A stretch of 64,000 bases of DNA from Desulfomonilaceae bacterium (GTDB lineage Bacteria > Desulfobacterota > Desulfomonilia > Desulfomonilales > Desulfomonilaceae), in NCBI GenBank assembly GCA_041740635.1, contig JBGSLQ010000034.1, forward strand, positions 5,726-69,725, given 5' to 3'. Numbering within the stretch: the first letter of the stretch is position 1; the number at the start of each line of letters is the position of its first letter. This document shows positions 28,922 to 49,664 of this stretch, piece by piece. Under the pieces are notes generated by a model that worked only from the letters and a program-made list of their open reading frames with translations, ran no database searches and had not been told where the DNA came from. A program made the translations under genes and the position numbers.

Positions 28922-28968
28922 TGGAGCCGGGGATGGGAGTCGAACCCACGACCTGATGATTACGAATC
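28922..28968 (-). repeat. 47-bp att-like duplicate of the tRNA-Thr(CGT) 3' half, inverted relative to the tRNA
   Basis: Reverse complement GATTCGTAATCATCAGGTCGTGGGTTCGACTCCCATCCCCGGCTCCA is identical to 49472-49518. Confidence 0.95.
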
Positions 28969-29201
28969 CCATTTTTTGGCCTATTAAATAATTTTATCAA
29001 TTCCTCTGGATCATTCGGAACACTATTGCGCTCTGCATGACCCTTTTTTTACTCTCCTGATGTGGGGAGAGTAGGAACAAAGGTCACAATTCCCCAAGAA
29101 AACAGTTCGCACCTAAAAATAGGGGCTCTCTCAAGGAATGTCTTTCAGGGTACCGGCACACGGATTGACGCCAATTCACAGTCAACGAAGCATCGGGCAT
29201 T

Positions 29202-29987
29202 TTAAGCTGTTCGCGAAACCAGATTCCTAAGGTTCATCCAAAGCTGCCCCAAATACTCATGTATTGCCAATTCCGAACCAAGTAGCGCACTGCCTTCCGG
29301 CAGAAAGCTTCTATACAATTGGGGCGGAGTTTTGGCCTTAAATCCGCAAGGACTGGCAACAGCATTGAGGCCTTTGTTCCGGAATTGCTTCATGGCTCGG
29401 GGAATATGGTAAGCAGAACTCACCAGTGCGAATGTGGAGTCGCCCAGAAATGCCGACACGAATTCAGCCTCGTCCTCTGTATCCCATGCGTTGGCATAGA
29501 TTGTCAAAGCATCGGACTCAACCCCCAGATACATGGGAAAAGACTTCATCGATTCCAAATTGTTACCCGAAACCGGGTGTGCCATTCCGGAAAGAACTAA
29601 TCGGCTTCCGGGAACGCCGTGCCAAAGACGCACTCCTTCCAAAACCCGGTAAATGGAATCTCCGGACTTGTCTGCAGGGGTTAGCTCATCAGTGCTGCCA
29701 ACACCTCCCAATACAACAATATACTGCACGCCATTTGATTTGAGGAAATCAGGATCCTGATACGGCCCGGCTTGAGCCTCCAAACTATATAATAACAAAT
29801 AGGATGTGATCGGTAATGAAAGAACCAACAAGAATGCCGATCCAGCGACGATGAGGAAGGCCCCGGCCCGACTCCAGTGCTTCAACTTCCAGAGAATAAG
29901 GCCGGTGACCACGAGAACGAAAGAAATCCCGACGGGCTGAACCATCGCACTTACTAATTTCTTTAAGACAAAACCTACAAAATCCAT
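29202..29987 (-). CDS. YdcF/ElyC family (DUF218) envelope protein
   Basis: N-terminal TMs, IVVLGG, RVLEGVRL, LVLSG, LVSSAYHIPRA; ATG 29987 preferred. Confidence 0.88.
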   Translation of the reverse strand: MDFVGFVLKKLVSAMVQPVGISFVLVVTGLILWKLKHWSRAGAFLIVAGSAFLLVLSLPITSYLLLYSLEAQAGPYQDPDFLKSNGVQYIVVLGGVGSTDELTPADKSGDSIYRVLEGVRLWHGVPGSRLVLSGMAHPVSGNNLESMKSFPMYLGVESDALTIYANAWDTEDEAEFVSAFLGDSTFALVSSAYHIPRAMKQFRNKGLNAVASPCGFKAKTPPQLYRSFLPEGSALLGSELAIHEYLGQLWMNLRNLVSRTA

Positions 29988-30114
29988 AGATACACCGCCT
30001 GTGATTTTGGCACATTTCTCACGAAATCCCGCTCGTCCGGAAGATGAAGAATTTTCGCGATCCATTCTCCGATACAATGTGTACACCAGTCACTGAGAAG
30101 CTCACAATCCATTT

Positions 30115-31158
30115 TCAAAATTCTTGGGATGGATTCAGAACCAAGCCGAAAAACTCCCCGATTAATCGGAACATTCCAACAGACGTCCCAATACCGTATG
30201 CGCAATGTATCAGGAAGAAACAGAATGGTATCAAAAAAACAGCGAACTTCCGATACCCGCTGAAAGAGGAGGTTTTCTGTGCAGCAAAAATAAAAGCAGC
30301 GAGAAAGTAGACCAGCAGCACAAAACCTAAGAGCCAGCCGGTCAATACCGTGGCTGTGAGAACGGAAAATACCAAAACAAGAAAGAAGAACAATGGTACG
30401 AAATGTCTGAATGAAAAACATCTCGGTTGAATTGCCATTGTGGGGAAAATCCACAGACCGTTGTTGTACATCTGTCTGAGCAGTCCACGAAGAGTACGAC
30501 GTGACAAATAGCGCGATATAATCGTCGGATCGTAGTAAAATCTGAAACCGGCTTTGCGGATCCGATAATGCATTTCGTTGTCTTCATTACGCACCAGGGT
30601 CTCGTTGAACAGCCCTACATTTGCAAAAACGTGTCTTGAATAAGCCGCAAAAGCAAGGGTGTCCACGTATCCTGCGGCCCGTAATTGCCTGAATGGAGCA
30701 CAAGCGGCGCCAAAACGTGATGAAGCAGCAGCGGAGAGAATCAGTTCCCAGATCCCACTCGGCTGCATGTAAACGATGCGGCCTCCAACGACAGACTCTC
30801 CTTTCTCTAATGCTTCGTAATTGCGTGTCAAGAAATCGGTGGGAATTCTGGTATGTGCGTCCAGTCGCAATACGAATCTCCCGGTCGCTGCCTTGATGGC
30901 AAGATTCAAACCTGGAGCTGTGATTTTGTACGGGTTCTGCAGTATGATAATTTTTCTCGGGGAATAATTATCGGCAAAGTCTTTCATCACGTGACCGGTC
31001 CCGTCGACGGAGGCACTATCCACAAGAATTATCTCCGTCCGTTCGGCGGGAAAATCCTGTAAAGTCAAATCCTGAAGCAAATTGATCAGGCATTCACGTT
31101 CATTGTGAACCACGAGAATGATTGAAAATATTATCTCATGGCTATTTGTTTCATCCAT
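30115..31158 (-). CDS. Glycosyltransferase family 2, ExoA-like
   Basis: LVDSASVDGT, RLDAH, FNETLVRNEDNEMHYRI, C-terminal TMs. Confidence 0.92.
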   Translation of the reverse strand: MDETNSHEIIFSIILVVHNERECLINLLQDLTLQDFPAERTEIILVDSASVDGTGHVMKDFADNYSPRKIIILQNPYKITAPGLNLAIKAATGRFVLRLDAHTRIPTDFLTRNYEALEKGESVVGGRIVYMQPSGIWELILSAAASSRFGAACAPFRQLRAAGYVDTLAFAAYSRHVFANVGLFNETLVRNEDNEMHYRIRKAGFRFYYDPTIISRYLSRRTLRGLLRQMYNNGLWIFPTMAIQPRCFSFRHFVPLFFFLVLVFSVLTATVLTGWLLGFVLLVYFLAAFIFAAQKTSSFSGYRKFAVFLIPFCFFLIHCAYGIGTSVGMFRLIGEFFGLVLNPSQEF

Positions 31159-31505
31159 CTCGAACTCCAGACACCGATATTATGATTTATCGCAACAAAA
31201 TGCGGAGGGTATAAAATTTAGTAATTCATACAGATTATGGTCTTGGGCTCTTTTCCGAAGGCCTATGGGCAAATAAAAAGCATTCTCAGATCGCAGCAAT
31301 AAATGGGAGACCCCGTTGAATAGAAAACTTCGGGCATGTTCTCCCCGAATGGCTCCGTATTAATTGGTATTGTGGAAAGTGCCGCTTTGTCCTTAGTATC
31401 TGACGGCTGAAGCCCCGGAAAAGATGACTGCTATATGGAAAAGTAAATGTGACAGGAAAAATATAATATGCAGTGTTCGAGGAAGGATTTCCTTCCCCAT
31501 ATGCA

Positions 31506-32957
31506 TCACACTGACGCTCCAGACCTCGAGGAATTCTCCACCAGTGGTTGTGCCGATTTTGTTAATGCTTGACAACATTCATTGACCACGAATTTAAATT
31601 TTCCGTTGTTTCCTCTGGGAATTGTATCGACTAATTCGATGCGCACGTTTACGCAGCCCACCCGGTCCCGGAAGCGATTCATAATGACCGATTTGTCGGA
31701 ATCATCAAATCCCGCACACGGTACACAACAAATGACAAATTCCTCTGCTTTCAACTGCTTAATTTGCGCTTCCTTTATTCGCAAATTCCCTCTGAACACA
31801 GGGTCAATGAGGCCTATCCTGCGACCGTCCGGAGTAATTATCATGTCTGCAGTCCGGCCTTCGACCTTCTTGATAATCGGCATTGAGCGTCCGCATTCGC
31901 ATTGCCAATCGCGGTCGCCGGCAATCGCCCAATCACCGACACGATATCGAATAAAAATGTTATTTGGATTGAGCAAACCTGTGCACACCAGTTCCCCCGC
32001 TTCACCAGGAGGAACTGCTTCGCCGTTTTGATCGATAAATTCCGTTATGCCTACATCGGGCGAAAGGTGTAAATTGCCGTAAGCGCATTCGTATGCGTGT
32101 GTCACACCTTCAGAACACCCGTATGAGTCACGTGTTTCACATTGAAAAGCTTCCTTGATCCGATCGCGCTGATGAATCAGGTATGGTTCGGCATTTCCGA
32201 TTGCAAAATCAAATTTGATATCTGTCCTATTTCTCTCGAGAGCATGAATGGCAAGAACATCCATTGACGAGCAAAATCCGAGCATATACCGGATTTTTCT
32301 TGCCTTGATCTCATCTAAGTAATAGTCGAGGAATTGTGGGGCAAGATGATAATTCGACATGTAGAGTTGCCTACAGGGTTGGTTCCAAATCCAAAACGGC
32401 GGGTGTTTCCGCTTTTGTGAGATTACCAATTGGCCGCCAATCATGCACCAGTTATCGCCATACTTCACTCCATTCCAACGACGGAGCCTGTATTCAAATA
32501 TGGCAAATAATTCCTGGTACGTGCTGGATGTCCAATAAGTCAATACAGGTTTTCCCGTTGTGCCGCTTGTCTGTTCACAAATCAGTTTTGATGGATTGCA
32601 ATCATCTGCAATGAAATCGCGAGGATTTAGACGAATCACATCTTTTTCGAGAATAGGAAGGATACTTAGATCGTCAATCGATTTGACATCTTCTACAGGA
32701 AAACGTCCGGATGCATGGAGACGCCTATAATACGGTATTCTGGTTACTGCACGTTTTAAGAGGAACATCAACCTGTCATTTTGATATTCTCTCCACTGCT
32801 CTGATGTCCAGCCATCTCTCAGTTCAATGACCGGAACCATTCTTTCCCATAAAGAGCCGTATCTTATCCTTGTCTGATAATATCCGTACAGTGAAGCAGC
32901 AATATTCAATGCACAGGACGGCAGGCCATAATACATTCTGAGAAGAATGTCATTCAT
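31506..32957 (-). CDS. Phenylacetate-CoA ligase / CapK-like adenylate-forming enzyme
   Basis: QTSGTTGKP P-loop, YGCSEG, IRYRVGD, EGRTAD, GKFKFV. Confidence 0.9.
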   Translation of the reverse strand: MNDILLRMYYGLPSCALNIAASLYGYYQTRIRYGSLWERMVPVIELRDGWTSEQWREYQNDRLMFLLKRAVTRIPYYRRLHASGRFPVEDVKSIDDLSILPILEKDVIRLNPRDFIADDCNPSKLICEQTSGTTGKPVLTYWTSSTYQELFAIFEYRLRRWNGVKYGDNWCMIGGQLVISQKRKHPPFWIWNQPCRQLYMSNYHLAPQFLDYYLDEIKARKIRYMLGFCSSMDVLAIHALERNRTDIKFDFAIGNAEPYLIHQRDRIKEAFQCETRDSYGCSEGVTHAYECAYGNLHLSPDVGITEFIDQNGEAVPPGEAGELVCTGLLNPNNIFIRYRVGDWAIAGDRDWQCECGRSMPIIKKVEGRTADMIITPDGRRIGLIDPVFRGNLRIKEAQIKQLKAEEFVICCVPCAGFDDSDKSVIMNRFRDRVGCVNVRIELVDTIPRGNNGKFKFVVNECCQALTKSAQPLVENSSRSGASV

Positions 32958-35122
32958 GATATCTCCTTTCCAATGAGAGAAGATCCGTTCTTTCCATTTC
33001 TACTGGAATAGTAGGCTTGGTAATAATTGTATGCTCGATCGAATGTCGAAACTCTATTCAGAATGACACCTAAAATTCTCGATTTTTGTGTAGAGCGTAT
33101 CATCTCTATCGCTGAGGTCACTTCATGTTCTGTAACATGGCCTTGCCGTGCGAGAAATATAAGTCCGTCCGTAACTCTCGAAAGTATCCGGGTGTCAGGA
33201 AAAGCCAATATGGGCGACGAATCGAAAATGACAACATCGAATTCCTTTCTCAAAATGTTACATACTTCTTTGAGTCTATCGGATCTCAAAAGATTTACTG
33301 GATCAGGAGATAACGGCCCTGCTAACATATAAAATAAATTTGATGGCTTGTGATGGTGAACAACATTCTCGAATGGCATATCAGGCGACTGAAGCAAGTT
33401 CGATAATCCGTCCTCGTTTATTTCGTTAAACATTCTCGAGATCGTCGGTCCTCTCAGATCGGCGTCAATGAGTAATACTTTTTTTGACTTGTCTAAAGCA
33501 TAGGTAAGAGCCAATGACATGGAAGCAAAGCTTTTGCCTTCCTGGGGTATTGCGCTCGACAAAACCCACGTTTTCATGTCCGAATCCTCTGCGACAAACG
33601 AGAGGGAGGTTTGAATGTTTCTGAATGCATTCGACAAGAACGATTGCGGTTCCGAGTGTACCAGAAAAGCTCCTCTGGAAGTGCCATTTTTCAACCTGAT
33701 ACCCACATTGTTCAAATCAGGTATTTTGCCTAATTCGCGAAGATCGAACTGGGTTTCTAATCTCTTGGTGGTTTGAATCGAGTCATCGGTATATTCGCGT
33801 ATAAATGCAACGAGTACGCCTATCAATACTGAAGCTAAGAGCCCAACACTGAGAAACAGGAGTTTGGGAGGCCAGATTGCGCCCGTGTTCAGGGAACCGG
33901 TATCTATTACGTGAATGTCGTTCAAGTTGCTATTTATCCGAATTTGTGTTTCCAAATATTGTTTCAGAAGATTCGAATGCACTTCTCTGTTCATGTTCAC
34001 TTTTCGCATGAGAAGAGCGCTCTGTGAACTCAAAGCATTGACTCGCATTGCTTCCGATTTTATGCCGTCAAGGTACTCTGTTGAAATAAGCTCTTCTTTC
34101 TTGATAGCATCCAATGCTGCGGAAACAGCCTCTTTCTGGGCGTGCTCAATCTTATGTCGTAATTCGGTAATTTGCTTTTGAAGGGTAATTCGTTTGGGGA
34201 ATGCTTCACTATAGAGGGCACCCATGCGGCGATCTTCCACTTCGAGGGTTGCCAACTGCTCCTGCATTTTTTTCACATACTCGCTATTGGGGAGATCTCC
34301 AGGCAACTCATCATTCTTGCCGGTGGATTTATCGTCCAGGGCCTGGTATTTGCCGCGCAATTCTCTGGTTCTCAGCACTGTCTCCATTTGTCTTTTCAAT
34401 TGATCCATAATGGGACCAAATCCACCGTCACTCGATGGAACCAAGCCACTTTTCGACACAAACTTGACAAGTTCGGATTCCGAATCGAAAAGTTTCAACT
34501 CAGATTTTTGCAGCTCTCTTTCAAGGCCGGTTAACGTGTCCTTCAAATCTTTTCTTCTCTGCTCCTGTTGATACGTGACGCATAAATTGAGGAATTGATC
34601 CAAAAGAGTTTTGGCCTGAAACGGATCTTTTGCGTCAAAACTGACCATAATTAAGTTACTTTTATGAATCGGTCGAACGGTAATCCTGTCCAAAACAGTC
34701 TTTATGAACCTATTCTTCTTCTCGATCTCGGCAAATTTCGACGAGTTCGGGGCGTCTTCCGCAGAGAGAAGACCACGCAGACCCGATAGAATTTGGCTTG
34801 GAAGGCCGGGTGAGCTTATAAACTCCGGATCTTCATCCAGCTTCATTTCTGTTACTAGCAACTCTGCTACGCTTGTTGATTTCAATTTGCCCAGGTGCGT
34901 ACTGATTATCGCCTCAGAATTTGCTTCCCCGACCAAGGCATTCGATGTCTCGGGTTTCTTAACGTCTACTTCGAGCATAGCGTATGATCTAAACCATGGG
35001 ACTCGGGAAAAAGTAAATACAACGGTCACTAAGATAAGCCCGCAACTTATACACAAAATCATAAACTTATGTTTTTTTACTACATTCAGCAAAAAGACTG
35101 CATCTTTACCAGAATCATCCAT
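32954..35122 (-). CDS. wzc: Wzc/GumC-type polysaccharide co-polymerase with tyrosine kinase domain
   Basis: Two TMs around a periplasmic coiled coil; SSAIPQEGKS Walker A, LLIDADLRGP, VIFDSSP; C-terminal Tyr cluster YNYYQAYY. Confidence 0.93.
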   Translation of the reverse strand: MDDSGKDAVFLLNVVKKHKFMILCISCGLILVTVVFTFSRVPWFRSYAMLEVDVKKPETSNALVGEANSEAIISTHLGKLKSTSVAELLVTEMKLDEDPEFISSPGLPSQILSGLRGLLSAEDAPNSSKFAEIEKKNRFIKTVLDRITVRPIHKSNLIMVSFDAKDPFQAKTLLDQFLNLCVTYQQEQRRKDLKDTLTGLERELQKSELKLFDSESELVKFVSKSGLVPSSDGGFGPIMDQLKRQMETVLRTRELRGKYQALDDKSTGKNDELPGDLPNSEYVKKMQEQLATLEVEDRRMGALYSEAFPKRITLQKQITELRHKIEHAQKEAVSAALDAIKKEELISTEYLDGIKSEAMRVNALSSQSALLMRKVNMNREVHSNLLKQYLETQIRINSNLNDIHVIDTGSLNTGAIWPPKLLFLSVGLLASVLIGVLVAFIREYTDDSIQTTKRLETQFDLRELGKIPDLNNVGIRLKNGTSRGAFLVHSEPQSFLSNAFRNIQTSLSFVAEDSDMKTWVLSSAIPQEGKSFASMSLALTYALDKSKKVLLIDADLRGPTISRMFNEINEDGLSNLLQSPDMPFENVVHHHKPSNLFYMLAGPLSPDPVNLLRSDRLKEVCNILRKEFDVVIFDSSPILAFPDTRILSRVTDGLIFLARQGHVTEHEVTSAIEMIRSTQKSRILGVILNRVSTFDRAYNYYQAYYSSRNGKNGSSLIGKEIS

Positions 35123-35266
35123 GATAGATCTCCGACCGAGCTTTTTCGCAATTACTACTTCGATTTACTATTTGGTTTAGTACGACCTTCATACGGGTAC
35201 AAATGTTCTTGAATCCTGTAATAGATTTGAATTTTTGGAAAAGTATGACTGGAATCCTCGTTATGC

Positions 35267-36319
35267 TTAGTTTCGAGAGGTTTTCCTTACCGTCCTTGTC
35301 AATCCGGTGAAATAGTGTCCGGACCTTCCTGAAAATAGGCCAAAATCAGCCAGCCCTATAAGAAATCCCAAGGCATATCCGAAATGATAAGCTGCAAAAA
35401 TGATAGGCATGATGGGCAAGTATTTAATTTTGCCCGAGACATTACACGTTAGGACACTCGCAATTAAGGAAGAGCATAGGTATACGGCGATCAAAGCGAT
35501 CAGGATGGGAACACATGCACAATCAATTATTGATAGAAATGCACTTGTCAATAGAGCCAAAGTGAATATTGCAGGAACCAGATGCCGGCCTGCTGCGGAC
35601 GTTTTGTGCTTCTGCATTATTCGCACTTTCCAGTATCCGTATTGTTTGTACTGATTAAACAGCGATATTATGGAATTTCTGGGATAATACCAGGATCGAA
35701 TTGAATTCGATTGGAAAATCTTACCTCCATTTCTGATAATTCTCAGATTCAGCTCATCATCCTGGTTACGTATCAATTCCTCATCAAAATTTCCCATTCT
35801 TGTTAATGTATGCTTATGCCAGCATCCGTAAGGCACGGTATCAACATAGCCTTCATGATGCTCATTGTGAAATTTGGCTCCCCCGGTGCCGAACCTCGAT
35901 TTGTAAGCCAGGCCGATTGCAGCTTGAACATAGCCCATGGCTTTGACGCGGGCGGCGCCTCCCACGTTGTCCGCTCCTGTTCTGAGTAGCTCTTTCAGAC
36001 ACATTTTGATGTAATCCGGAGCGTACTCAGTGTGAACGTCCATTCTCATAATGTAATCGCCGGTCGATTGCATGAGTGCGAGATTTAATCCCTTGGACGT
36101 AGTCTTGCATGGGTTTTCTATCAACACTACTCTTGAATCCTTACGGATGTATTCCCGGATTTTTTCTGTGGTACCATCGTCACTCATGCCATCCACAATG
36201 AGAAATTCTAATTCATCAATTTCTTCGGGGACTTCCTGAAGAAGTACGCTGGCCATGAAAGCATCTATATATTCTACTTCATTTCTACAAGGTACTATTA
36301 TCGAAAGTTTTTCATTCAT
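35267..36319 (-). CDS. Glycosyltransferase family 2, ExoA-like
   Basis: IVDGMSDDGT, RMDVH, VDTVPYG, FDEELIRNQDDELNLRI. Confidence 0.93.
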   Translation of the reverse strand: MNEKLSIIVPCRNEVEYIDAFMASVLLQEVPEEIDELEFLIVDGMSDDGTTEKIREYIRKDSRVVLIENPCKTTSKGLNLALMQSTGDYIMRMDVHTEYAPDYIKMCLKELLRTGADNVGGAARVKAMGYVQAAIGLAYKSRFGTGGAKFHNEHHEGYVDTVPYGCWHKHTLTRMGNFDEELIRNQDDELNLRIIRNGGKIFQSNSIRSWYYPRNSIISLFNQYKQYGYWKVRIMQKHKTSAAGRHLVPAIFTLALLTSAFLSIIDCACVPILIALIAVYLCSSLIASVLTCNVSGKIKYLPIMPIIFAAYHFGYALGFLIGLADFGLFSGRSGHYFTGLTRTVRKTSRN

Positions 36320-36715
36320 GATCTTTGCTTCTCGTGTGATCGCACAGGCGATCAGGGTGGATAATTGAATAGGGATGTGATTCTACATTTGAGGTTTGTA
36401 ACCATTTGAAAGCAAGAACTCACTTCAGGCCTGTTTTGAATGGGTAAGCCCTTCTTTATCGAACAATTAGACCAGGATATTTCCGCACACTGCATGCGAG
36501 ACTTCGATACGTGCCCTAAAAACAAATTGGAGGAGATTTCGGACATACGACGCTGGTCTTAGACCGAATACGAGGCATCTCTTTCAGGCAATTGGCGCGC
36601 AAATCCCTGATCGCAATTAGTTATGAAAACTATTCATATGGATTGCTAAAAACCCCCAAGCTTCGCATTTTCCGTGAAGCCGCATTGGCGATGTATCATG
36701 AAACGTAAGAAGACT

Positions 36716-37273
36716 TTAAGACTGCCGAAAGTATACGACTTCTTCTTCATAACCGGATGAATCGAACGAAAAATTATCTTTAATCACTCTTGCGGGAACG
36801 CCACCCGCAGTCACATCCGACGGCAAGTCTCTTACTACTGCTGAATTCGCAGCAATAGCAACGTTTGAGCCGATTGATACTCCCGGGCAGATAGTACAGT
36901 TCGCTCCTATCCATGTACCTTTGCCGATCCTTATTGGTTTTCTGACTGATTTGCCAAAACGATAACTCCCTGCCCGGGAACGGTGATTCCCGTCTATAAT
37001 GACACTGTGAAAGGCAACCATAACTTCGTCATCTATTTGTATATTCGATGCGGCTAAGATGACCACTCCTGAAGCGCAATATACATCGTTTCCTACGGAA
37101 AGATTTTCTAATCCTCTTATTATTGCAGCATTTGAGACTTGAAAATTCTTGCCTTTGCGATTCATAGCCAAGCCCAACAGCCAGCCTCTGAACCGCATTA
37201 TGTGAGGAATATCAGGCATCCAGAAAGTTATGACAAAAATAAGCCAGCTATACATAATAAGAACTTTGTTCAT
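36716..37273 (-). CDS. Hexapeptide-repeat (LbH) O-acyltransferase
   Basis: IRIGKGTWIGANCTICPGVSIG...IAANSAVVRDLP...GGVPARVI. Confidence 0.92.
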   Translation of the reverse strand: MNKVLIMYSWLIFVITFWMPDIPHIMRFRGWLLGLAMNRKGKNFQVSNAAIIRGLENLSVGNDVYCASGVVILAASNIQIDDEVMVAFHSVIIDGNHRSRAGSYRFGKSVRKPIRIGKGTWIGANCTICPGVSIGSNVAIAANSAVVRDLPSDVTAGGVPARVIKDNFSFDSSGYEEEVVYFRQS

Positions 37274-38454: not shown

Positions 38455-38493
38455 TCGGCAAATCCTCCTATTCAGATAAGCTTACATGCTTAT

Positions 38494-39846: not shown

Positions 39847-39892
39847 AACATTGACTCCGGCTTAAAAACTCGGATGAAGATTCGATTTAGGG

Positions 39893-41455
39893 TTACAGTT
39901 GCTTCTTTTCCAAAACCGTAGCAGCGCAGGAATCGACCGCGAATTCTTTTTGGGAAAGTGATTTCCTCAATTGCCGCAGTATCCATTCTCTTGTCTGCGG
40001 TCCGAAAATCAGTGCAAAGCCGATGCAGGCGCTGGTTGCGATTCCGATATAGAGCACCGTAAGAACTGTCGACATCTGACCGGGAACGAGATAGCGGAAA
40101 AACGAACCCAGTACAAGCGTTCCAAGAAGTGGACGGCCAAAGTCATCGATGTACCATTTACGTTGTTCACCAATGAGAACTCGACGATGAGTAAACCATA
40201 CGGCTGACATCAGGTATGTTCCCCACACTATTATCCAGGCTATTGCAGCGCCACTTGGGCCGAGCAGATTCGTCAACACAATCACGAGGGGCACAAAAAA
40301 CATCAATGCGACTGTATTCATTCCGGTCATCAGTCTTGTCCATCCATACGTCAGTTGCAGATTTTTCGGCAGCGCATTCAACCCCTGAAAAGCCATGCCG
40401 ATAATGAGTAATTGCAGAATCGGGCCGGTATTCCGGGCAATGAGCGGATCTCTCGTCCAGGCAAACAAAATTTCATGGGAAAACAGCGAGATAATGACCG
40501 TGACCGGTATGATTACCGAACCGGCGATCTGGCAGCAGCCATGATACAGGTCAGCCAAACCGGACCTCTCACCGATTTGAACATACCGGGCAAGCTGTGG
40601 AAAAGATGCGTCTCGAATGGGATCCGCCACTAATCCTATTGCACTGATTGCTAATGTCCAAGCCAGTGAATAATAGCCAAACAGGTCCAGTGGTAGAAGC
40701 TTGCTCAAAACGATTTTGTCGGCCTGGAGCAGTATTAAGAGGAGTGCCGTACCTGTGCTGAACCCCACTCCGAAGCGCCAATTGAGCATCATCACCGCCC
40801 TGCTGAATTTGGCCTTCGCGTGACTTTTCGGCATGACACGATGCAGAAAGAATGCCGCAGTGAAGGTCTGGATCAGAGCAGCCGGAATTTGCCATAATGC
40901 ATATGCTTCAACTGAAGGAGAAATAAAATAAAGTACTACTATAGAGCCAACAAAGCGTACGGTAGTAGTGGTTGCTCCAATGACATTTGCAAGAGCTTGA
41001 CGCTGCAGCCCCATCAACCCCGCAATGTACATGGTATAGGGAAGACTCAATCCCAAAGCGAGACCCATAGCTATGATGGATGTCACCACGGTTGAAGTGC
41101 TAAGCTCTTGAAGTTTGAGCCAATGTGATGCCAGAAGAGGTGCAAGTAAGACAAATACGACTGCAATAATAACCGCCAGCGCCCAGCAAATCACTTCCAA
41201 GGTTCGGAGAACCTTTTTCGACTGATGACCGGTGTTGTTGAGACCCGACAATCGTGCAAGCTCACGATTCAGGATGGTAGCAATGCCATCATGAAGAAGG
41301 CTGCCGCCGAGTTGCAGTGTCGTGATAAATCCTATGAGCCCATAAGATTCAATCCCCATGAATCGGACGTAGAAGGGGATGACTATAAGACTTACCGCAG
41401 ATACCCAGCCCCGTCCCGCATAGTTTGCGAGAATGTTGGTAGTTAAAAGAGACAT
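39893..41455 (-). CDS. wzx: Wzx-type oligosaccharide flippase
   Basis: ~12-14 TMs; NILANYAGRGW, ADKIVLSKLLPLDLFGYYSLA, FPQLAR. Confidence 0.9.
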   Translation of the reverse strand: MSLLTTNILANYAGRGWVSAVSLIVIPFYVRFMGIESYGLIGFITTLQLGGSLLHDGIATILNRELARLSGLNNTGHQSKKVLRTLEVICWALAVIIAVVFVLLAPLLASHWLKLQELSTSTVVTSIIAMGLALGLSLPYTMYIAGLMGLQRQALANVIGATTTTVRFVGSIVVLYFISPSVEAYALWQIPAALIQTFTAAFFLHRVMPKSHAKAKFSRAVMMLNWRFGVGFSTGTALLLILLQADKIVLSKLLPLDLFGYYSLAWTLAISAIGLVADPIRDASFPQLARYVQIGERSGLADLYHGCCQIAGSVIIPVTVIISLFSHEILFAWTRDPLIARNTGPILQLLIIGMAFQGLNALPKNLQLTYGWTRLMTGMNTVALMFFVPLVIVLTNLLGPSGAAIAWIIVWGTYLMSAVWFTHRRVLIGEQRKWYIDDFGRPLLGTLVLGSFFRYLVPGQMSTVLTVLYIGIATSACIGFALIFGPQTREWILRQLRKSLSQKEFAVDSCAATVLEKKQL

Positions 41456-41599
41456 TCGAATTCTATTTCCAATTTGTAATATAGTACGTAATTTGTTTGT
41501 GTGGGAAACAATTTATACCAGTTTTCACGCATAATTTTTGCAACAATTACTTTCAGTCAAAATCAATTCGACAAGGTCACGAGAAATAATTTGTCAGCA

Positions 41600-42721
41600 C
41601 TATGGCTGTTGACCTCTTGAGATTTGCACTTCCTGCCTGACGTTCGTCAGAATGGCATTGAACTGAGTTGATTTCTCAAAAGGATTGTAATTGTTTCCCG
41701 AATCACCGTAGACCCATACATATTCGTAATTTCTCATAAGAGTTTTGAAAATCGGCTCGAAATCGGTTGCGTTCCGCAAAACGGAAGAACCGCATTCACC
41801 TCGGATTGTCCAGCCCTTTTTTGAAGAGAGAGATTCCCACGGTCCTACAGTTCCTCCCAATTTCAGAATGTTGGGATATTTTTCCAAATAGGTCGCAAAC
41901 TTAAGTGCGCGGGAGTTGATTTTGGATTCCAAATCGGCATGATCACGGACGCAGTATCCTATATCTACTCCTCCGCCTGCAACGACTTTGAATGTATAAT
42001 TCTTTTCCTTTGCCCGGTCGAGGATCCCAAACACGATTTCTGTTGTACTCCATGGTTTTTCCTGGTGCAAAGGAGCATAAAGAAACCATATTATTGCGTT
42101 CGGATGGTTCTCGTGAATCATATCAGCCATTTTAGAACCAATATTTCGCAAAGCCAAAACAATTTCGGCCTCGGTCTTGCCCTGCCTGGATGTTATCTGA
42201 CTTATTTTATGATTGTCATGATTATTGTACAGTTCTGCGTCGATTACTATTCCCGGAGAATTCATCTTTCTGGAAGCAACCAGGGAGTGGTGCAAAATTT
42301 CGTAAAAATCCTGAAGTGCACCTGTTTGATTGTAAAGGTCCAGTCCCCTGATGCCCCGAAACCATGGTTTGTTCCTGGGGGAAGCCTTTGGGTCTTCCGC
42401 TATTCTGTTGAAAAAAATCCAGGGCCAAATCTGTTTCTTGATTCCTGTTTGCGCCAGCCACATAAAATTTGTACGATCCCAACTGTAATATGCATCAATA
42501 GGAAATACCGCTATACCGTCATAAGCCGATTCATTGAATACAACGGCCATTTTGGTTCTGACATGGTCAAGATTGTTTTTAGTAATTGGATTACCGAAAA
42601 AGGTCAGCATCATCAAATAGGGTGTGGGAACATGGTTCTCTTCCACTGATGCACAGGTTCCGTATCCGAAAAATGTGAATGTTAAGATTATTATGATGAG
42701 AACGGTGGCGGGTTTTATCAT
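41600..42721 (-). CDS. Hypothetical exported protein, possibly glycoside-hydrolase-like TIM barrel
   Basis: Signal/TM N-terminus; alternating beta/alpha pattern (YDGIAVF, IWPWIFFN, GIVIDAELYN). Confidence 0.6.
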   Translation of the reverse strand: MIKPATVLIIIILTFTFFGYGTCASVEENHVPTPYLMMLTFFGNPITKNNLDHVRTKMAVVFNESAYDGIAVFPIDAYYSWDRTNFMWLAQTGIKKQIWPWIFFNRIAEDPKASPRNKPWFRGIRGLDLYNQTGALQDFYEILHHSLVASRKMNSPGIVIDAELYNNHDNHKISQITSRQGKTEAEIVLALRNIGSKMADMIHENHPNAIIWFLYAPLHQEKPWSTTEIVFGILDRAKEKNYTFKVVAGGGVDIGYCVRDHADLESKINSRALKFATYLEKYPNILKLGGTVGPWESLSSKKGWTIRGECGSSVLRNATDFEPIFKTLMRNYEYVWVYGDSGNNYNPFEKSTQFNAILTNVRQEVQISRGQQP

Positions 42722-42748
42722 CCTCTCGGCTCCTTACATAACCGTAAT

Positions 42749-43672
42749 TTAAACTCTGTTGAACAAATCATCTGCCAGCGAAGCCACGAGTGTCCTTGCG
42801 TCTTCAAAGTCTTTCGTTTCCTGTTCATTCGCTTGCCGGGGATGCGATGGAATTCGCAATTTTCTCCGCAAGAATGTCCTCGCTAACAGGCCATAGGACT
42901 GAAGCATCATGAGACGTGCGGTTAAAGGGAATTGCGTTTCATACTCTTTCAGCGTTTGCCGGCATGATTTGAGGCTCTCCTTTGCCGCGATCATTGACGA
43001 ATTCGCTGTTAACTCCTCTTCAATTCTGTATGAATAGAGAGGCTTTGCCATGAGATAGAAGGGTTGGCCCCAGAGTAGTTTTATAAGGAAATCAAAATCT
43101 TCCGATCTTCTCAGATGTTCATTAAATCCTATCTTCTTCGCTTCCGACGACTGCATCAAGGAAGAGGGAAAAGGCACGTATACCCAATGAGGTCTCGATT
43201 CCCCCATTACGGTTTTATCCGAGAAATCTTCGGTTGAACCGCCTATACCGGAAAGAGAGTTGTCCACTTTCACCAGAACAAGAGGAGAACTGCACAAGAT
43301 TAATTGACATTCACTCTCCATGATTTGGATTTGAGTCTGCAATTTTGAAGGGTACAGCCAATCATCACCATCCAAAATTGTCATATACGGACCCCGAATT
43401 TTCGTCAGGGCAAAATTGCGGGCGGCCCCTCTACCCACGTTTTGTGGCAACCGAAAAAATCTGATTCTTTCGTCTTTGATTTCCCGGACAAGAACGTCAG
43501 GGCTGTCAGTCGAGCCGTCATCTACGATGATAGCTTCCCATTCCTCGTACGTTTGGGCCAACACAGAAGCTAAGGCCCAATTCAACGTGGTAACAGAATT
43601 GTAAATACATATTATAATGGACACCAGTGGTGGCAAAGTAATTAACCTTTTAATAAGATAAGTCCAATTCAA
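42749..43672 (-). CDS. Glycosyltransferase family 2
   Basis: IVDDGSTD, NVGRGAARN, ILDGDD, RSEDFDF; start codon uncertain. Confidence 0.9.
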   Translation of the reverse strand: MNWTYLIKRLITLPPLVSIIICIYNSVTTLNWALASVLAQTYEEWEAIIVDDGSTDSPDVLVREIKDERIRFFRLPQNVGRGAARNFALTKIRGPYMTILDGDDWLYPSKLQTQIQIMESECQLILCSSPLVLVKVDNSLSGIGGSTEDFSDKTVMGESRPHWVYVPFPSSLMQSSEAKKIGFNEHLRRSEDFDFLIKLLWGQPFYLMAKPLYSYRIEEELTANSSMIAAKESLKSCRQTLKEYETQFPLTARLMMLQSYGLLARTFLRRKLRIPSHPRQANEQETKDFEDARTLVASLADDLFNRV

Positions 43673-44553
43673 TTATGCAGCGCTACTGTGTCTCACCTCA
43701 CATAAAGGAGATTCAACGATCATTCTGCTTTTTTCCATTAAAGCGCAGGCTTCGCCCCTTACGAGTCATTGTAACTGGCTACTATTCCATCGCTTTTTGC
43801 TTTTATGCACGAATTAAGATAAAATGGGCAGTATCAAGGCTCGGCTGAGCGCAGTGCACAGCTCAATTTCCCCCGAACATCGTCGAAATATTTTGCGTTT
43901 GAAAGTTATGTCATTTCTGCCCAAATCCATTAATTATGTTTACCACGGGAAACTTCTGATCTTCGCGTGACCTCAGGTAACTAATTTTATGCCCTTTTTG
44001 CCAAATCTTCCAGGTCGTTGCTCCTTCTCGACCAGTAATCAGATGAGCAATATAATTCTACTTTAGTAGTATCGAAAAAATCTATCTCGTCAACCAGCAA
44101 AAAGTAAGTAGACTATTCGGTATCTCAACTACCCATTTCATACTGGGTCACGTCCCCATAATACTTCAAGGGTTAAGAAGGGATACCGAAAAAGCATGAA
44201 TGCCATTGATGGACCGCTCCTCGGCTCTTTGGCCGGTTTTTGTTATGAGAAGCCAACTATCCGTAACCGCGATGCTTCGTATTCCGCCGGACGCACTGGA
44301 TGATTCCACTGTTTTGGAAATGGGTGCTCGTAAGCGTTACGTGCACTCCTTGGGCTACTCGCAAAAAGTGTCCTGCGTGGAATTCCGGAGAACCGGCCTT
44401 CTTATTCAATCATCAATTATGGTTTTTTTATTCGGATTCGATTATTTTGGATCGAATTTTCAAATATGGGCTCTAACAGGTTAGTAATTGATTGTCTGCT
44501 AACTTCGGAATTGTGACAAAGAGGAGAATTGTAGGGGGAACGAAAAGGGGGCA

Positions 44554-46068
44554 ATGGGTAATACAATAGAAATTAACGTTAGAGATATGGTTAATGATAT
44601 TCGAGCCAAAATGGATTGTTGTCAACTCATGGAAAAACACAGTCTGTCCTTATTTGGCTTGATGAAAGCCTTGAACGGAATTCTCCGGACGAAGGCTATG
44701 GAATCGGAGGAACTCAGCAGATTTCTGCCTCTGGATGCACAGATAATCGAAATACGGGAACAAAGAAAAAATCCCAGACATGTGATTCGGGGAACAGTTC
44801 TGGTTCACGATGTGAGCAACCCGGTTCGTGCAGGTCTCATGCAAAACATTACGGAAGAAGGTTTCCAGATAAAGGGAATTCCGGCTTGCACCGGAGAAAC
44901 CATGAGACTGGTCGTCAAGGCAAAAGATTTCTTGCCGATCGGCACATTCACGCTTGAGGCGGAGTGCCGCTGGTTTACTCCTGATTCGCACCCAGGTGAG
45001 ACGACTTCAGGGTATCGCATAAAGATACTATCCGACCGGGCTAGAACGGAGCTGCGAAAGTTGGTTTTCGCGGAGTCGCTCGAGGAAAACAAAGCATCTC
45101 TGGCCGCTCTTGCGTGCGAAAACCGTCAGCATTTTATAGAGGCATCTTTTGGTTTGGAGGGCAACATCGAACATGGGACCGGACTGAACAACGAAATCAT
45201 CGATTGTGAGAGCCTTGAAACGGGAATGGGAGTCGATTTATTAAGTTCTGCAATGAACGCGTTCGCCATTCCGTGTTTACTCATAGACGAATGCTATCGA
45301 ATAATTTCCGTTAATGAATTTTGTAGCCAAATCGGTCCAGACAAGGACCATCTTGAAGGTCAATTGATAATGTCATTATTTCCTGATTCTTTCGATCGAG
45401 TGAAATCATGTATAGACCGGAGTTTATTGGATAAAAATGCTATCACTATCTCTACCTGGATGGAGATTTTGCAGAAACGATATTTTGTGAAAGCAATTTT
45501 CAGACCGATTCGATGTGGTATGGAGAATTTAACGACAGTAACAGTCCAGGATTTTACTCATTCTCGGACAGTGATGCGTTCGAAAGAATCAACCACCGAT
45601 GAATTATTCAGCGCTTACAGAGAGCTTCTTTCACAATTGGCAAATAATGAAGTCATGTTGCATAAAAGAAGCAAAGCTATGCAGCTCATTATGGAATCTC
45701 TTGGTACCAGATTAAAAGAGGAAAGGCAGCAATTAATTCTCGAGTTGATTTCACATTTGAAGCCGATGGTCTCTCGCATAAGATCCGAAACACTGTCCAC
45801 CCGGGGAGAAGCGCTTGTCGTCACATTAGAAATGTTTCTTGAGCAGCTCCTCTCCAATTCCGATAACCGAGCTGTTCAACTGTACAGTAGCCTGACACCG
45901 AGAGAATCGGAAATTTGTAATCTGATATTAGCTGGAAAAAGCTCGAAAGAGATTACAGATGTCCTCGGTCTCAGCCTGGAAACGGTTTCAACGCATCGAA
46001 GAAACATAAGAAAGAAACTTGGCTTACTCTCGGGACAAAGCATATTTAACGCTCTAAGAGCCCGCTAA
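44554..46068 (+). CDS. PilZ + PAS-like + LuxR-HTH regulator
   Basis: REQRKNPRH (RxxxR) and NITEEG PilZ-like motifs; C-terminal LTPRESEICNLILAGKSSKEI...HRRNIRKKLGL. Confidence 0.8.
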   Translation: MGNTIEINVRDMVNDIRAKMDCCQLMEKHSLSLFGLMKALNGILRTKAMESEELSRFLPLDAQIIEIREQRKNPRHVIRGTVLVHDVSNPVRAGLMQNITEEGFQIKGIPACTGETMRLVVKAKDFLPIGTFTLEAECRWFTPDSHPGETTSGYRIKILSDRARTELRKLVFAESLEENKASLAALACENRQHFIEASFGLEGNIEHGTGLNNEIIDCESLETGMGVDLLSSAMNAFAIPCLLIDECYRIISVNEFCSQIGPDKDHLEGQLIMSLFPDSFDRVKSCIDRSLLDKNAITISTWMEILQKRYFVKAIFRPIRCGMENLTTVTVQDFTHSRTVMRSKESTTDELFSAYRELLSQLANNEVMLHKRSKAMQLIMESLGTRLKEERQQLILELISHLKPMVSRIRSETLSTRGEALVVTLEMFLEQLLSNSDNRAVQLYSSLTPRESEICNLILAGKSSKEITDVLGLSLETVSTHRRNIRKKLGLLSGQSIFNALRAR

Positions 46069-46382
46069 TAAATAGGAGTTGCATCTATCCGACGCAACAT
46101 CCAGGCACAGTTCCCCTCCGCGGCATGTGATAAACATTGACCTGAAAATTCAGCTCCGATATTATTATTGTTAGGGACATCCCTCTCATGTTCCGGTGGC
46201 GGACGAAACAGATGTCATTCGATATACCTCCCCGTAAGAATGTTTTGCCGTGTTCAGGGATACACCCCCTGTCACTCAAAGTCGTTCAGACGCAAGTGTG
46301 GCAGATGTCGCAATAAGTTATGGAAATTTCCTTTTCTTTGAGGATTTCCTTCGGCTTACCTTTTGCCGCAGGGGGAAGAGGC

Positions 46383-49331
46383 ATGATACAACTATTCACA
46401 GCGACTCGGCGACAGGTAGATTCGCTGATAGACGGATTCATGGCTAAACTTCTCCCGACAGGTGACGAGAATCCGCAGAAACGCTTTTTTGTTTATTTTG
46501 TGAGCATTCTGTCATGTGCACTATTTATTCTCTTCCTTTTCAACATCATATCAATCAGACCCGGTCGGAGCCTGGCTGCGGCCCTGGCTGGAGCAGGGCA
46601 AGTAATTAGCCTTCTGATTCTTCGACGTTCCAAAGATCCAAAGATTGCCTTTCGTGTCAGCGCTCTGGTGATGCTTTGCTATTCTCTGTTCCTTACAGGG
46701 GTCGCCGGCCCTCAGGGAATGAGAATTCTATGGATACTCATTTTTCCGGTCTACGTCTTTCTCTTGTTTGGTGGTCGGGAAGGCTTTTTCTGGACAACGG
46801 CTGGTTTCATCGGTTTTCTGAGCGTGATCCTGAATCCGCAGGACGTTTACGCTGCCTTTTCCGGGGATAATAGAGGATTCTTGATCACCTATATCGTCCT
46901 CGGCATACTGGTGAGCGCATTCGAAAAAATTGTCTACCGAGCTCAAGCAGAGAAGATTAGGGACAAAACCGATCAATTAGAAGAGGCGGTCGATAGGCTA
47001 TTCACGCTAATGGAGGAGCGAAAACGTGCTGAGGAGGCTCTGCTCCAGAGCGAGGAACGATTTCGCACGTTTTCGGAAGCTTCCTTTGAGGGCATTACAC
47101 TAATCGATGTCGGCCTATTTGTAGATGTAAACGATCAATTTGCTCGGATGCTCGGATATGAACGTTCCGAACTCATCGGACAGCCCGTCATAACTTGTGT
47201 TGCTCCGGAATATAGAAATATTGTGCAAACAGCGATTCGAACAGGGAACAAGGGTCCATATGAGCATTTGGCTCTCCGCAAGGATGGAACAGTGTTCCCG
47301 GTTGAAGTTCAAGCGGGAATGAGTTACCTGGGTGGTCGCGTCATGCGTACTTCGGCGGTTCGCGACATATCTGAGCGAAAACATGCTGAAACCAGGATTA
47401 GAGAAGCGAACGAATACGCTGAAGCAATCCTCGATAGTCTTCCGGGGACCTTCTATGTATTTGACGAACAGCTCAGATTGATTCGGTGGAACAAGAACTT
47501 TGAAACGGTTTCCGGTTTCACCTCTGAGGAACTTGCCGGGAAAAATCCACTCGAGTTCATAGATGAAGAAGATAGGGATGCAGTAGCGGCAAAACTTGAA
47601 GCATCCGTTGTCAGCGGAAGCGAATCCGTCGAAGCAAATTCGCTCACGAAGTCAGGTGAGACCGTTCCGTACCTCTTCACTATTGTCTGGCGTACGCTCG
47701 GTGACCGGAGATATCTGTTGGGCACGGGAGTCGACATCAGCGATCGTAAGAGATCGGAAGAGCTCCTGTTCAAAAGTGAGAATCTCTTTAGAACCGTGTT
47801 CGAGATAGCTCCTGACGCAGTAGCGATAAGCAAGTTGGAGACCGGAATCTATGTGGATGTGAACCAGAGCTTTTCAGATCTCACGGGCTACACCAAAGAT
47901 GAACTGATAGGCAAGTCTGCGATCGATCTGAACATCTGGAAGGATGTTCACGGTCGAGAGAAGATGATAGAGATTCTTGCCGAAAAAGGATTTGTACGGA
48001 ATGTGGACGCTTCCTTCAATTTGAAAGACGGCAGAATGAGACAAGGTCTTTTATCAGCCCGCTCTATAATGCTGGATGGAGAAGCACACCTCCTTTCTAT
48101 AGTAAAAGACATTACAGACCTGAAGGAGGCCGAGGCAGAGCGAATGCGGCTGGAAAGACAGGTGCAGCATGCTCAAAAGCTTGAGAGCCTCGGTGTTTTG
48201 GCTGGAGGCATTGCCCACGATTTCAATAACATTCTAACGAGTATTTTGGGAAATGCCGATTTAGGCCTGATGCGAATTTCTCCCATGGCGCCCGCGCGAG
48301 ACAATCTTGAGGAAATACGAAAAGGAGCGCTTCGTGCAGCCGGTTTGGCTAATCAGATGCTGGCTTACTCGGGCAAAGGGAAATTTGAATTGAAGTCCGT
48401 CGATTTGTCCGGCCTGGTCCGGGAACTGGCCCAATTGCTTGACGTGTCAATTTCAAAGAAGGCTATTTTGACGTATGACTTATCAGAAAATCTGCCCCTC
48501 ATCGAAGGTGATGTGAATCAAATCCAGCAGATAGTCATGAATCTTATCACGAATGCGTCGGAAGCCTTAGGCCAAGAGAGTGGAGTAATCAGGTTGTCAA
48601 CCGCTTCCGTCTCTTGCGATCGTACATACCTTGAAGCCATGCGTGAAGGGCTGCACTCTAATTACCATGAACCACTCCCTGAAGGCTCTTACGTCGCCCT
48701 GGAAATCAGTGACACGGGGTGCGGAATGGATCCCGAGACTCAGAGCAAGGTGTTCGAACCTTTCTTTACTACGAAATTTTCCGGTCGCGGTCTCGGCATG
48801 GCCGCGGTGCTCGGAATTGTGCGGGGGCATAGAGGACTCGTCAGAATCTACAGCGAGATCGGCAAGGGCTCCACATTCAAGATCCTCTTTCCGGCCGGTC
48901 GCGAGTTGAAGACGAATGAGATGCTCACTATCGAAAACGAGAATTCTCAGCAGTTGATGTACGAAGGTGTAGTCCTCGTAGCTGATGATGAGTCAGTCGT
49001 CTGCGATATTGCCAAGGAAATGCTCCAAGAAATGGGTCTCACGGTGCTTACGGCTTCAGACGGAATTGAAGCCATGAAAATATTCCGGGAGCATCTGGAG
49101 GAGATCTCGTTCGTCCTGCTTGACCTCACGATGCCGGGCTTGGACGGGGCACAGGTTTTTCAGGAGATGAAACGGTTGAATGCCACAGTTAAAGTGATTT
49201 TATCAAGCGGATACAATGAACAAGACGTGACTCACCGATTCGTCGGCAAAGGACTGGCCGGTTTTATTCAGAAACCTTACACCATGGCGAAGCTAAGAGA
49301 AAAGCTGAATCAGGTTTTGCGAACAGGGTGA
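46383..49331 (+). CDS. Membrane-bound hybrid sensor histidine kinase (5-6 TM, 3 PAS, HisKA/HATPase, receiver)
   Basis: LAGGIAHDFNNIL H-box, NLITNA, DTGCGM, FFTTKFSGRGLG, ADDE...LLDLTMP receiver; ATG 46383. Confidence 0.95.
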   Translation: MIQLFTATRRQVDSLIDGFMAKLLPTGDENPQKRFFVYFVSILSCALFILFLFNIISIRPGRSLAAALAGAGQVISLLILRRSKDPKIAFRVSALVMLCYSLFLTGVAGPQGMRILWILIFPVYVFLLFGGREGFFWTTAGFIGFLSVILNPQDVYAAFSGDNRGFLITYIVLGILVSAFEKIVYRAQAEKIRDKTDQLEEAVDRLFTLMEERKRAEEALLQSEERFRTFSEASFEGITLIDVGLFVDVNDQFARMLGYERSELIGQPVITCVAPEYRNIVQTAIRTGNKGPYEHLALRKDGTVFPVEVQAGMSYLGGRVMRTSAVRDISERKHAETRIREANEYAEAILDSLPGTFYVFDEQLRLIRWNKNFETVSGFTSEELAGKNPLEFIDEEDRDAVAAKLEASVVSGSESVEANSLTKSGETVPYLFTIVWRTLGDRRYLLGTGVDISDRKRSEELLFKSENLFRTVFEIAPDAVAISKLETGIYVDVNQSFSDLTGYTKDELIGKSAIDLNIWKDVHGREKMIEILAEKGFVRNVDASFNLKDGRMRQGLLSARSIMLDGEAHLLSIVKDITDLKEAEAERMRLERQVQHAQKLESLGVLAGGIAHDFNNILTSILGNADLGLMRISPMAPARDNLEEIRKGALRAAGLANQMLAYSGKGKFELKSVDLSGLVRELAQLLDVSISKKAILTYDLSENLPLIEGDVNQIQQIVMNLITNASEALGQESGVIRLSTASVSCDRTYLEAMREGLHSNYHEPLPEGSYVALEISDTGCGMDPETQSKVFEPFFTTKFSGRGLGMAAVLGIVRGHRGLVRIYSEIGKGSTFKILFPAGRELKTNEMLTIENENSQQLMYEGVVLVADDESVVCDIAKEMLQEMGLTVLTASDGIEAMKIFREHLEEISFVLLDLTMPGLDGAQVFQEMKRLNATVKVILSSGYNEQDVTHRFVGKGLAGFIQKPYTMAKLREKLNQVLRTG

Positions 49332-49400
49332 TCCAGTAACAATGCATGCATTCGGGTGCGAACAGATGAATCCCTGCTTTCATTTCAAACAAAGCACTAG

Positions 49401-49430
49401 TTGACATTCCCTGCGGAGTTGATCTATTTT
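49401..49430 (+). promoter_or_regulatory. Sigma-70-type promoter for tRNA-Thr
   Basis: TTGACA-18 nt-TATTTT just upstream of the tRNA 5' end. Confidence 0.5.
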
Positions 49431-49442
49431 GAAGTTTCTGTC

Positions 49443-49518
49443 GCCGGGGTAGCTCAGAGGCCAGAGCAGATGATTCGTAATCATCAGGTCGTGGGTTCGA
49501 CTCCCATCCCCGGCTCCA
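49443..49518 (+). tRNA. tRNA-Thr (CGT)
   Basis: Cloverleaf: GCCGGGG/CCCCGGC acceptor, GATGA-TTCGTAA-TCATC anticodon arm, GTGGG-TTCGACT-CCCAT T-arm, encoded TCCA. Confidence 0.96.
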
Positions 49519-49664
49519 GACATCTTCAGTTACTTTTCACATTGCGCACGCCCTAAACCTCTGAACTGGTTTCTTGAGATGACCGGATTAGCAGGGCGAT
49601 CTTACATTATCGGTTCAGAGGACAAGTCTCGTTGCACAGCTTCTGGTTCAAACAGTTGGCAGAA

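Follow-up and report, generated by a model that had tools for sequence, protein, structure and literature searches.

A young att scar probably accounts for the inverted tRNA-Thr repeat around an exopolysaccharide cluster in a Desulfomonilaceae bacterium

Does a perfect inverted repeat around a surface-polysaccharide cluster mark a switch, a rearranged island or neither? The question is raised by a 64,000-nucleotide stretch of the draft genome of a Desulfomonilaceae bacterium (GCA_041740635.1, contig JBGSLQ010000034.1), hereafter the window, which we number from its first letter. Here the 3' 47 nt of the tRNA-Thr(CGT) gene recur exactly, 20.5 kb upstream and on the opposite strand, and the two arms enclose an exopolysaccharide (EPS) cluster of the Wzx/Wzy type, a LuxR-family regulator and a hybrid histidine kinase. 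The original prediction, made from the letters of this DNA, took the arrangement for a possible tRNA-preserving invertible locus, with an island insertion followed by a local inversion as its fallback. Comparison with related genomes favours a different account, which we consider probable: the upstream copy is an orphan attachment (att) scar, lying in young mobile-element debris beside a vertically inherited EPS cluster.

The repeat itself is as originally described. The intact gene, predicted by ARAGORN at 49443-49518 (+), is the sole tRNA-Thr(CGT) gene of the genome, and its last 47 nt (49472-49518) return as a reverse complement at 28922-28968 (-) with 47/47 identity, starting with the final two bases of the 5' strand of the anticodon stem and ending with the encoded CCA (tRNA positions 30-76). 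Since the estimated expectation of an exact inverted 47-nt match in 64 kb is ~1e-19, the pair is not a product of chance. In the output of a repeat finder, the arms reach 61 nt at 90% identity (28922-28982 and 49458-49518); over the additional 14 nt, 8/14 are matched to tRNA positions 16-29, which is higher than in true P arms. We refer to genomes and contigs by working names (G and C labels), the genome under study being G000 and its contig with the window C34. A search of all of G000 (70 contigs, 5.88 Mb) for further copies of the 47-mer, allowing up to 3 mismatches, returned the two arms and no third copy. Rfam, promoter and terminator scans of 28200-29400 found nothing except the tRNA-like piece. 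An intact tRNA gene accompanied by a displaced, identical 3' part that begins in the anticodon stem is what a tRNA island leaves behind; the direct repeats of such an island, with the fragment downstream of the tRNA, are missing here, and the perfect 47-nt arms flank the segment in the inverted orientation of an inverton. The geometric part of the original argument is sound: it follows from the sequence that a crossover within the 47-mer would restore, at the opposite end, a complete tRNA that ends in CCA, and both orientations would retain an intact tRNA gene.

We used tRNA-Thr(CGT) to search 40 relatives at first and 70 genomes of the family afterwards; at least six relatives, spread over several genera, have a gene 100% identical to it. 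G009 carries direct repeats 21.5 kb apart, one being the intact tRNA and the other a 47-nt fragment (positions 30-76), and the island between them contains a RepB-type primase, a DNA methylase, a large primase/helicase-like open reading frame (ORF) and a second recombinase, as well as a 365-aa PF00589 integrase that converges on the tRNA. An integrase of the same clade lies directly 3' of tRNA-Thr in G014, G016 and G001, as a pseudogene in G002 and as a frameshifted remnant in G003. Displaced fragments start at tRNA position 29 (G014, G016), 30 (G009, G015), 31 (G039) or 34 (G011), and that of G000 starts at 30. Because the fragments in these integrase islands share its start within the tRNA, we identify the 47-mer, by sequence comparison, as an anticodon-loop-type att core of the family's tRNA-Thr integrase elements, which bears out its earlier assignment to a tyrosine integrase. 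The layout in G000 is another matter: among the 12 genomes with two core copies on one contig, the copies are direct in 11/12 and inverted in G000 only, so that the inverted architecture occurs once among the 70 family genomes and lacks the conservation of an inverton.

The same tRNA gene also hosts smaller insertions. In one genus (g12), a cassette of ~0.95 kb follows tRNA-Thr (locus L050, G085 C5:46994-47990; locus L049, G014 C18); it carries a nucleotidyltransferase-like pair of the MNT/HEPN toxin-antitoxin type and amounts to a mini-island without an integrase, at whose edge a second fragment shows a longer identity block (tRNA positions 18-76).

We then compared the window with G003, a near-complete genome of a sister species in the same genus (84-93% nucleotide identity, about 89%), as the original prediction had proposed for close relatives. 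Positions 1-46092 are collinear with G003 in the same order and relative orientation, and beyond the LuxR gene G003 has the tRNA promoter and then tRNA-Thr on the strand of LuxR, as in G000. The core fragment and its flanks are absent from G003. Because G003 thus keeps the series of left flank, EPS cluster, LuxR and tRNA (+) without the fragment, the EPS cluster is chromosomal and not island cargo; an island would have placed foreign DNA, absent from relatives, between the repeats. In the more distant congeners G001 and G002, the cluster has no clear nucleotide match. The tRNA-Thr flanks of G002 and of other genera share no genes with those of G000, and there is therefore no usable outgroup.

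The age of this arrangement bears directly on the age of the copy. At four-fold degenerate sites, 28% differ between G000 and G003, and genes of the EPS locus (LuxR, GT2, Wzc, Wzx, GT4) match uvrB in this respect; because their divergence equals that of uvrB, the EPS cluster has been vertically inherited since the common ancestor of G000 and G003. A neutral 47-mer as old as that split would stay perfect with P ~2.5e-4. Because the gene order predates the split, the 47-nt copy must, on this estimate, be much younger than the order it brackets or else have been kept identical by recombination with the tRNA. Its perfection is compatible with a foreign origin: the tRNA is identical across genera, so that a perfect match is expected whichever member of the family donated the core.

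The copy lies within a strain-specific insertion of ~0.7 kb (28427-29126), delimited by alignment with G003, whose homology ends at about 28427 and restarts at about 29126; GGC stands at both edges. From left to right, the insertion consists of a repeat that we call R80 and of the att core between two stretches of unique DNA, 405 bp on its left and 155 bp on its right. It occupies the spacer that separates the left-flank genes from the EPS operon, downstream of the latter, and the core stands on the strand of that operon, 234 nt beyond the DUF218 stop. The spacer resumes immediately to the right, with 29124-29207 orthologous to the G003 spacer (z about 10 in one test and z = 13.9 in another). 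Apart from the core and R80, the interior of the insertion has no homologue in the 70 family genomes. Exact-pattern scans gave 0 matches for the fragment junctions in public metagenome and genome contigs and 0 matches for the att core in viral contigs, and no contigs encoding the longest ORF of the DUF218 gene were found.

R80 (28424-28520, +; 97 nt) forms the left edge of the insertion, and its other occurrences reveal its nature. It is ~80% identical to C32:235-318 of G000 and to 4046512-4046599 and 2613073-2613159 of G003 (z = 24-27), and is found only in G000 (C32, C38), in G003 (two copies) and in G081 (one), in no case close to a tRNA-Thr core. Both G003 copies and the one in C32 stand 22 nt from a tRNA-Pro(GGG)-like 3'-half fragment, and in G003 R80 follows the PF00589 domain match of an integrase gene by about 260-300 bp. 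Because R80 elsewhere adjoins tRNA-Pro-type cores and integrases, we read it, from these sequence associations, as belonging to the arm of a different element that targets tRNA genes, and we read the insertion as mobile-element debris: lineage-specific DNA that holds end sequences of other elements, as expected of a relic. Two other roles for the repeat were rejected. R80 is not part of the P arm of the tRNA-Thr elements, as it shows no significant similarity to those of G009, G014, G015, G016 or G085 in their arms; nor is the insertion bounded by two R80-like direct repeats that would speak for excision and reintegration through R80, since 29118-29212 bears no likeness to it (z about 0 to 1) and is instead the orthologue of the G003 spacer (z = 13.9).

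The tRNA-Pro(GGG)-like 3'-half fragments form a set of their own. Without a full tRNA, they occur in G000 at C32:159-318, C38:168183-168272, C38:177697-177750 and C65:29295-29333, and in G003 at C1:4046512-4046660 and 2613020-2613159, where integrase genes precede them; several have R80 22 nt on. They look like attP-like junctions of a second element family related to the tRNA-Thr one.

Together, these findings suggest the following course of events. The EPS cluster, LuxR and the tRNA would already have stood in their present order and orientation when a lineage-specific piece of ~0.7 kb, built of mobile-element end sequences and carrying an orphan core from the family's tRNA-Thr(CGT) anticodon-loop integrase elements, landed downstream of the EPS operon. 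Because the EPS-LuxR-tRNA order predates the piece, its inverted orientation would be an accident of landing; the layout would neither derive from a flip of the 20.5 kb nor form part of a switch. As for the route of arrival, a tRNA-Thr att element may have inserted at a secondary site or in linkage with R80 and then suffered an internal deletion, or an att-bearing fragment may have been captured at a break; two nested inversions are a further candidate. At present, the arms would be acted on only by rare RecA-dependent recombination across the 47 bp, and the resulting isomer would be viable, with its gene-promoter linkages unchanged.

We also looked for recombinases that could act on the arms. 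Contig C34 has no match to the tyrosine recombinase family PF00589 or the serine recombinase family PF00239, in agreement with the original prediction that the window holds no recombinase gene, and a tblastn search of 28000-29400 with the tRNA-Thr integrases of five relatives returned only noise (E > 0.07), leaving no integrase remnant beside the fragment. The genome-wide search for an integrase linked to tRNA-Thr(CGT), which had been suggested as a check on the invertible locus, was likewise run without finding a cognate enzyme: the five relatives' tRNA-Thr-linked integrases have no ortholog in G000, the best full-length match being 25% identical, and the closer matches are only C-terminal remnants of 45-60 residues beside tRNA-Arg(ACG) and tRNA-Pro(GGG). 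Five intact tRNA-linked integrases are present in G000, each beside another tRNA (Glu-CTC, Asp, Ala-CGC, Val-CAC and Glu-TTC), and since there is no third copy of the core, there is no resident element with a matching attP. Neither the associated integrase of an island nor the cognate recombinase of an inverton was therefore found. The remnants themselves (C38:115485-115667 and C14:45194-45331) are 53-76% identical to the relatives' tRNA-Thr integrases and, judged by this similarity, represent islands of that integrase clade that have decayed beside other tRNAs.

The repeat could nevertheless recombine by other means. At 47 bp, it exceeds the minimal length for RecA and is enough for rare RecA exchange. 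The integrase Int-pTN3 of Thermococcus inverts DNA between inverted tRNA att sites in vitro (PMC5495485). For both reasons, flipping of the segment is physically possible; we found no sign that it is programmed or frequent.

What a flip would change depends on the genes between the arms. The EPS cluster (29202-43672, -) is collinear with its G003 counterpart at 84-90% identity and has a G+C content of 0.43-0.46 as compared to about 0.49-0.50. It encodes an ElyC/DUF218 protein, GT2 and GT4 glycosyltransferases, a PaaK-like ligase, a Wzc-like tyrosine autokinase, a hexapeptide acetyltransferase, a Wzy-like polymerase (Wzy_C) and a Wzx flippase, so that its Wzx/Wzy content, like the hybrid kinase, is as first read. 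Divergent from the cluster lies the gene of the LuxR-family regulator (44554-46068, +), which is conserved in G003, where it adjoins the tRNA, and has 87% amino-acid identity to its counterpart there. The original prediction called this protein PilZ-LuxR. The LuxR part holds, as Pfam and NCBIfam detect a C-terminal GerE/LuxR helix-turn-helix at residues 445-493; no PilZ domain was detected, and the two databases recognise no domain in the N-terminal 440 residues. The PAS hybrid histidine kinase/response regulator (46320-49331, +) belongs to a segment, 46092-49340, that is missing at the G003 site and has no nucleotide-level homologue in G001-G003; compared with G003, it forms a clean indel of 3.25 kb, placed after the LuxR stop codon and before the tRNA promoter. 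The promoter region (49340-49442, +; TTGACA ... TATTTT) is kept in G003, to which 49340-49518 is 91.7% identical. The 20.5-kb segment takes in the tRNA promoter, the kinase, LuxR and the EPS operon together with the region upstream of it (43.7-44.5 kb); since every promoter lies inside it, a flip would alter no gene-promoter link. It would alter only the tRNA trailer and read-through from outside, and the change of linkage by which an inverton works is absent.

These observations allow the alternatives to be weighed. That a trans-acting recombinase or RecA actively flips the 20.5-kb EPS/regulator module between two orientations, each with an intact tRNA, would account for the perfect arms, and is made conceivable by their length above the RecA minimum, by the Int-pTN3 precedent and by a crossover that evidently regenerates the tRNA. 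We nonetheless consider it very unlikely: the genome offers no cognate integrase and no third att copy, and the contig no serine invertase; the layout is unique, the other 11 same-contig pairs being direct; the assembled orientation is that of G003, which lacks the repeat; the assembly contains no alternative junction; and with all promoters travelling inside the segment, no regulatory output is obvious. For the same reasons, the programmed invertible EPS locus of the original prediction finds no footing here. A weaker form, in which the cores are identical because they still recombine, with low-frequency flips of the 20.5 kb by RecA or by the integrase of a visiting tRNA-Thr element, strikes us as just as improbable. 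If it were true, the chromosome would exist as two viable isomers, distinct in tRNA trailer, flank read-through and replication orientation, and the locus would be a natural tRNA-preserving inversion cassette born of a stray att site.

Nor do we give much weight to an island turned around by a later inversion, in which the EPS-LuxR block entered a minus-strand tRNA-Thr beside the left flank as cargo, and an inversion of the tRNA and part of the block then trapped attL and attR in inverted orientation. Several features are of the kind it would leave: a weak P-arm-like signature on the EPS side of the fragment, a native-looking tRNA trailer at the start of the other side, the lower G+C of the EPS genes with their lack of a clear nucleotide match in G001 and G002, and a G003 integrase remnant 3' of the tRNA without attR, as a trapped island would show. 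Yet the arrangement is common to G003, which would put the event before the split, where a perfect neutral 47-mer has the low probability given above; G003 lacks the fragment and its flanks; EPS divergence equals that of core genes; the DNA between the repeats contains neither an integrase nor any other gene of an element; and in G002 tRNA-Thr is not in the neighbourhood of the left-flank genes. The fallback offered with the original prediction, an EPS island followed by an inversion of ~7 kb at roughly 44-51 kb, is not supported in that form, as LuxR, promoter and tRNA (+) are collinear with G003, the perfect 47-mer must be far younger than the arrangement shared with that species, and the break in synteny lies to the right of the tRNA. 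A mis-join at the short repeat, which would make the inverted copy, or else the way the middle segment faces, an assembly artefact, we regard as hardly credible. In a 70-contig draft, a 47-bp inverted repeat does leave the middle orientation ambiguous for k-mers of <=47; a mis-orientation would, however, leave the inverted repeat in place, both junction neighbourhoods are collinear with the near-complete G003, and the fragment has unique DNA on both sides within one 89.6-kb contig.

Several observations count against the orphan-scar account that we prefer. The unique DNA around the core has no homologue in the family genomes or in the public contigs scanned, and neither side can be firmly labelled as an arm of the P, P' or B' kind. 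Immediately past its CCA, the fragment reads TGATTCCAAT; over these first 10-11 nt it agrees with the trailer of the intact tRNA-Thr in G084 and G055 and differs from that of the intact tRNA-Thr of G000 itself. This hints that the fragment may carry the original 3' end of the gene, in which case a history of rearrangement would be a better fit than the plain insertion of foreign DNA. Ongoing recombination between the arms would likewise leave them perfectly identical, and the assembly is a draft of 70 contigs.

Taken as a whole, the flank clues point in differing directions (attR, pseudo-attB, P arm). On the 5' side of the core copy, the unique DNA at 28969-29123 has a weak P-arm-like signature relative to the attR P arms of G009 and G015, with which it has in common TTGATA 32 nt before the core and GG at -1/-2; the overall arm alignments are not significant, and the resemblance is suggestive only. 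The trailer is an ambiguous guide to whether the 3' flank is B' or P', as a related one, TGATTCCTTGG, opens the small cassette bounded by a second fragment in G085 and G014.

To the right of the intact tRNA, the two sister species diverge. In the window, the tRNA is followed by a unique trailer of 125 bp (49519-49643) without an integrase, and then by a conserved hypothetical gene; in G003, an integrase pseudogene occupies the same position, followed by about 20 kb, and the 254-aa gene at 49665-50429 lies 20 kb from the tRNA. The intervening G003 stretch comprises ~12 kb peculiar to G003, in which the integrase remnant lies, and 7.4 kb found on C69 in G000. We therefore discarded the idea that these 20 kb are a simple island, as only ~12 kb are G003-specific and 5250881-5258311 (7.4 kb) is chromosomal; no degenerate attR was found in them. 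Synteny with G003 breaks at about 50.6-51.9 kb, and DNA from 51917 to 83863 in window numbering (uvrB, rarA/mgsA, NAD kinase, recN and onward) corresponds to G003 5123334-5163158 in the opposite relative orientation.

The surroundings are rich in repeats and rearrangements. At the breakpoint (50640-51000) lie interspersed repeats of ~200 bp that resemble miniature inverted-repeat transposable elements (MITE-like); rich in GC hairpins, this family has 67 copies of >=120 nt on 35 G000 contigs and dozens in G003, where one copy is inserted in the spacer between left flank and EPS cluster (L036:18150-18500). A 176-aa ORF at 50465-50995 is probably such a repeat read through. A second interspersed family, at 53980-54180 and 8780-8870 (44 and 35 copies in G000; many in G001), makes up an inverted pair 45 kb apart (I2/I3 of the repeat finder) and stands just upstream of uvrB. 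On a larger scale, G003 C1:5.09-5.35 Mb is heavily rearranged relative to G000 contigs C8, C68, C34, C40, C67 and C69, with at least 8 blocks in 260 kb, several of them inverted.

Known systems provide points of reference for the inverted core. Tyrosine-integrase insertion in tRNA genes with an anticodon-loop sublocation was reportedly described by Williams in 2002. Dedicated switches such as fimS/FimBE, Hin/hix, the polysaccharide-promoter invertons of Bacteroides and the shufflons have short dedicated sites, usually with the cognate recombinase adjacent; their architecture is conserved, and a flip parts a promoter or gene end from its partner. Like these programmed switches, the G000 locus has inverted repeats around DNA associated with a surface polysaccharide; unlike them, it is missing dedicated sites, a cognate recombinase, a conserved architecture and the separation of partners. 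It resembles the genomic islands and integrative elements that tyrosine integrases place in tRNA genes at the anticodon-loop sublocation (Islander database, PMC4383910) in having an intact tRNA and a displaced 3' copy from anticodon stem to CCA. The fragment boundary is that of the islands at the orthologous tRNA in relatives, which have an integrase beside the tRNA, whereas the copy in G000 is inverted, upstream and without an integrase, and conserved chromosomal DNA lies between the copies. In the Thermococcus Int-pTN3 inversions (PMC5495485), too, an inverted pair of tRNA-derived att sites brackets a chromosomal segment; there, unlike in G000, the integrase is present and active in vitro and inversions distinguish related genomes, while the G000 segment lacks a cognate integrase and is oriented as in the sister species. 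There is a likeness, too, to orphan or decayed att sites and trapped island remnants, in that a solitary, integrase-less copy of a tRNA 3' end stands in a genome whose relatives have active elements at that tRNA; among these, the copy in G000 has as its own features that it is 47 nt long, perfect and embedded with R80 in one small insertion. It is a fresh instance of an already known kind.

The locus carries a caution, in that a perfect inverted tRNA half around a polysaccharide cluster mimics a phase-variation device, and comparison with relatives reveals a young att scar. Were flipping real, it would be a natural tRNA-preserving inversion; no present evidence points to it. For the family, tRNA-Thr(CGT) emerges as a busy integration hot spot, used by elements with integrase, RepB-type primase and methylase genes and by small toxin-antitoxin-like cassettes, and the stray att cores left behind can make inverted repeats long enough to seed later inversions.

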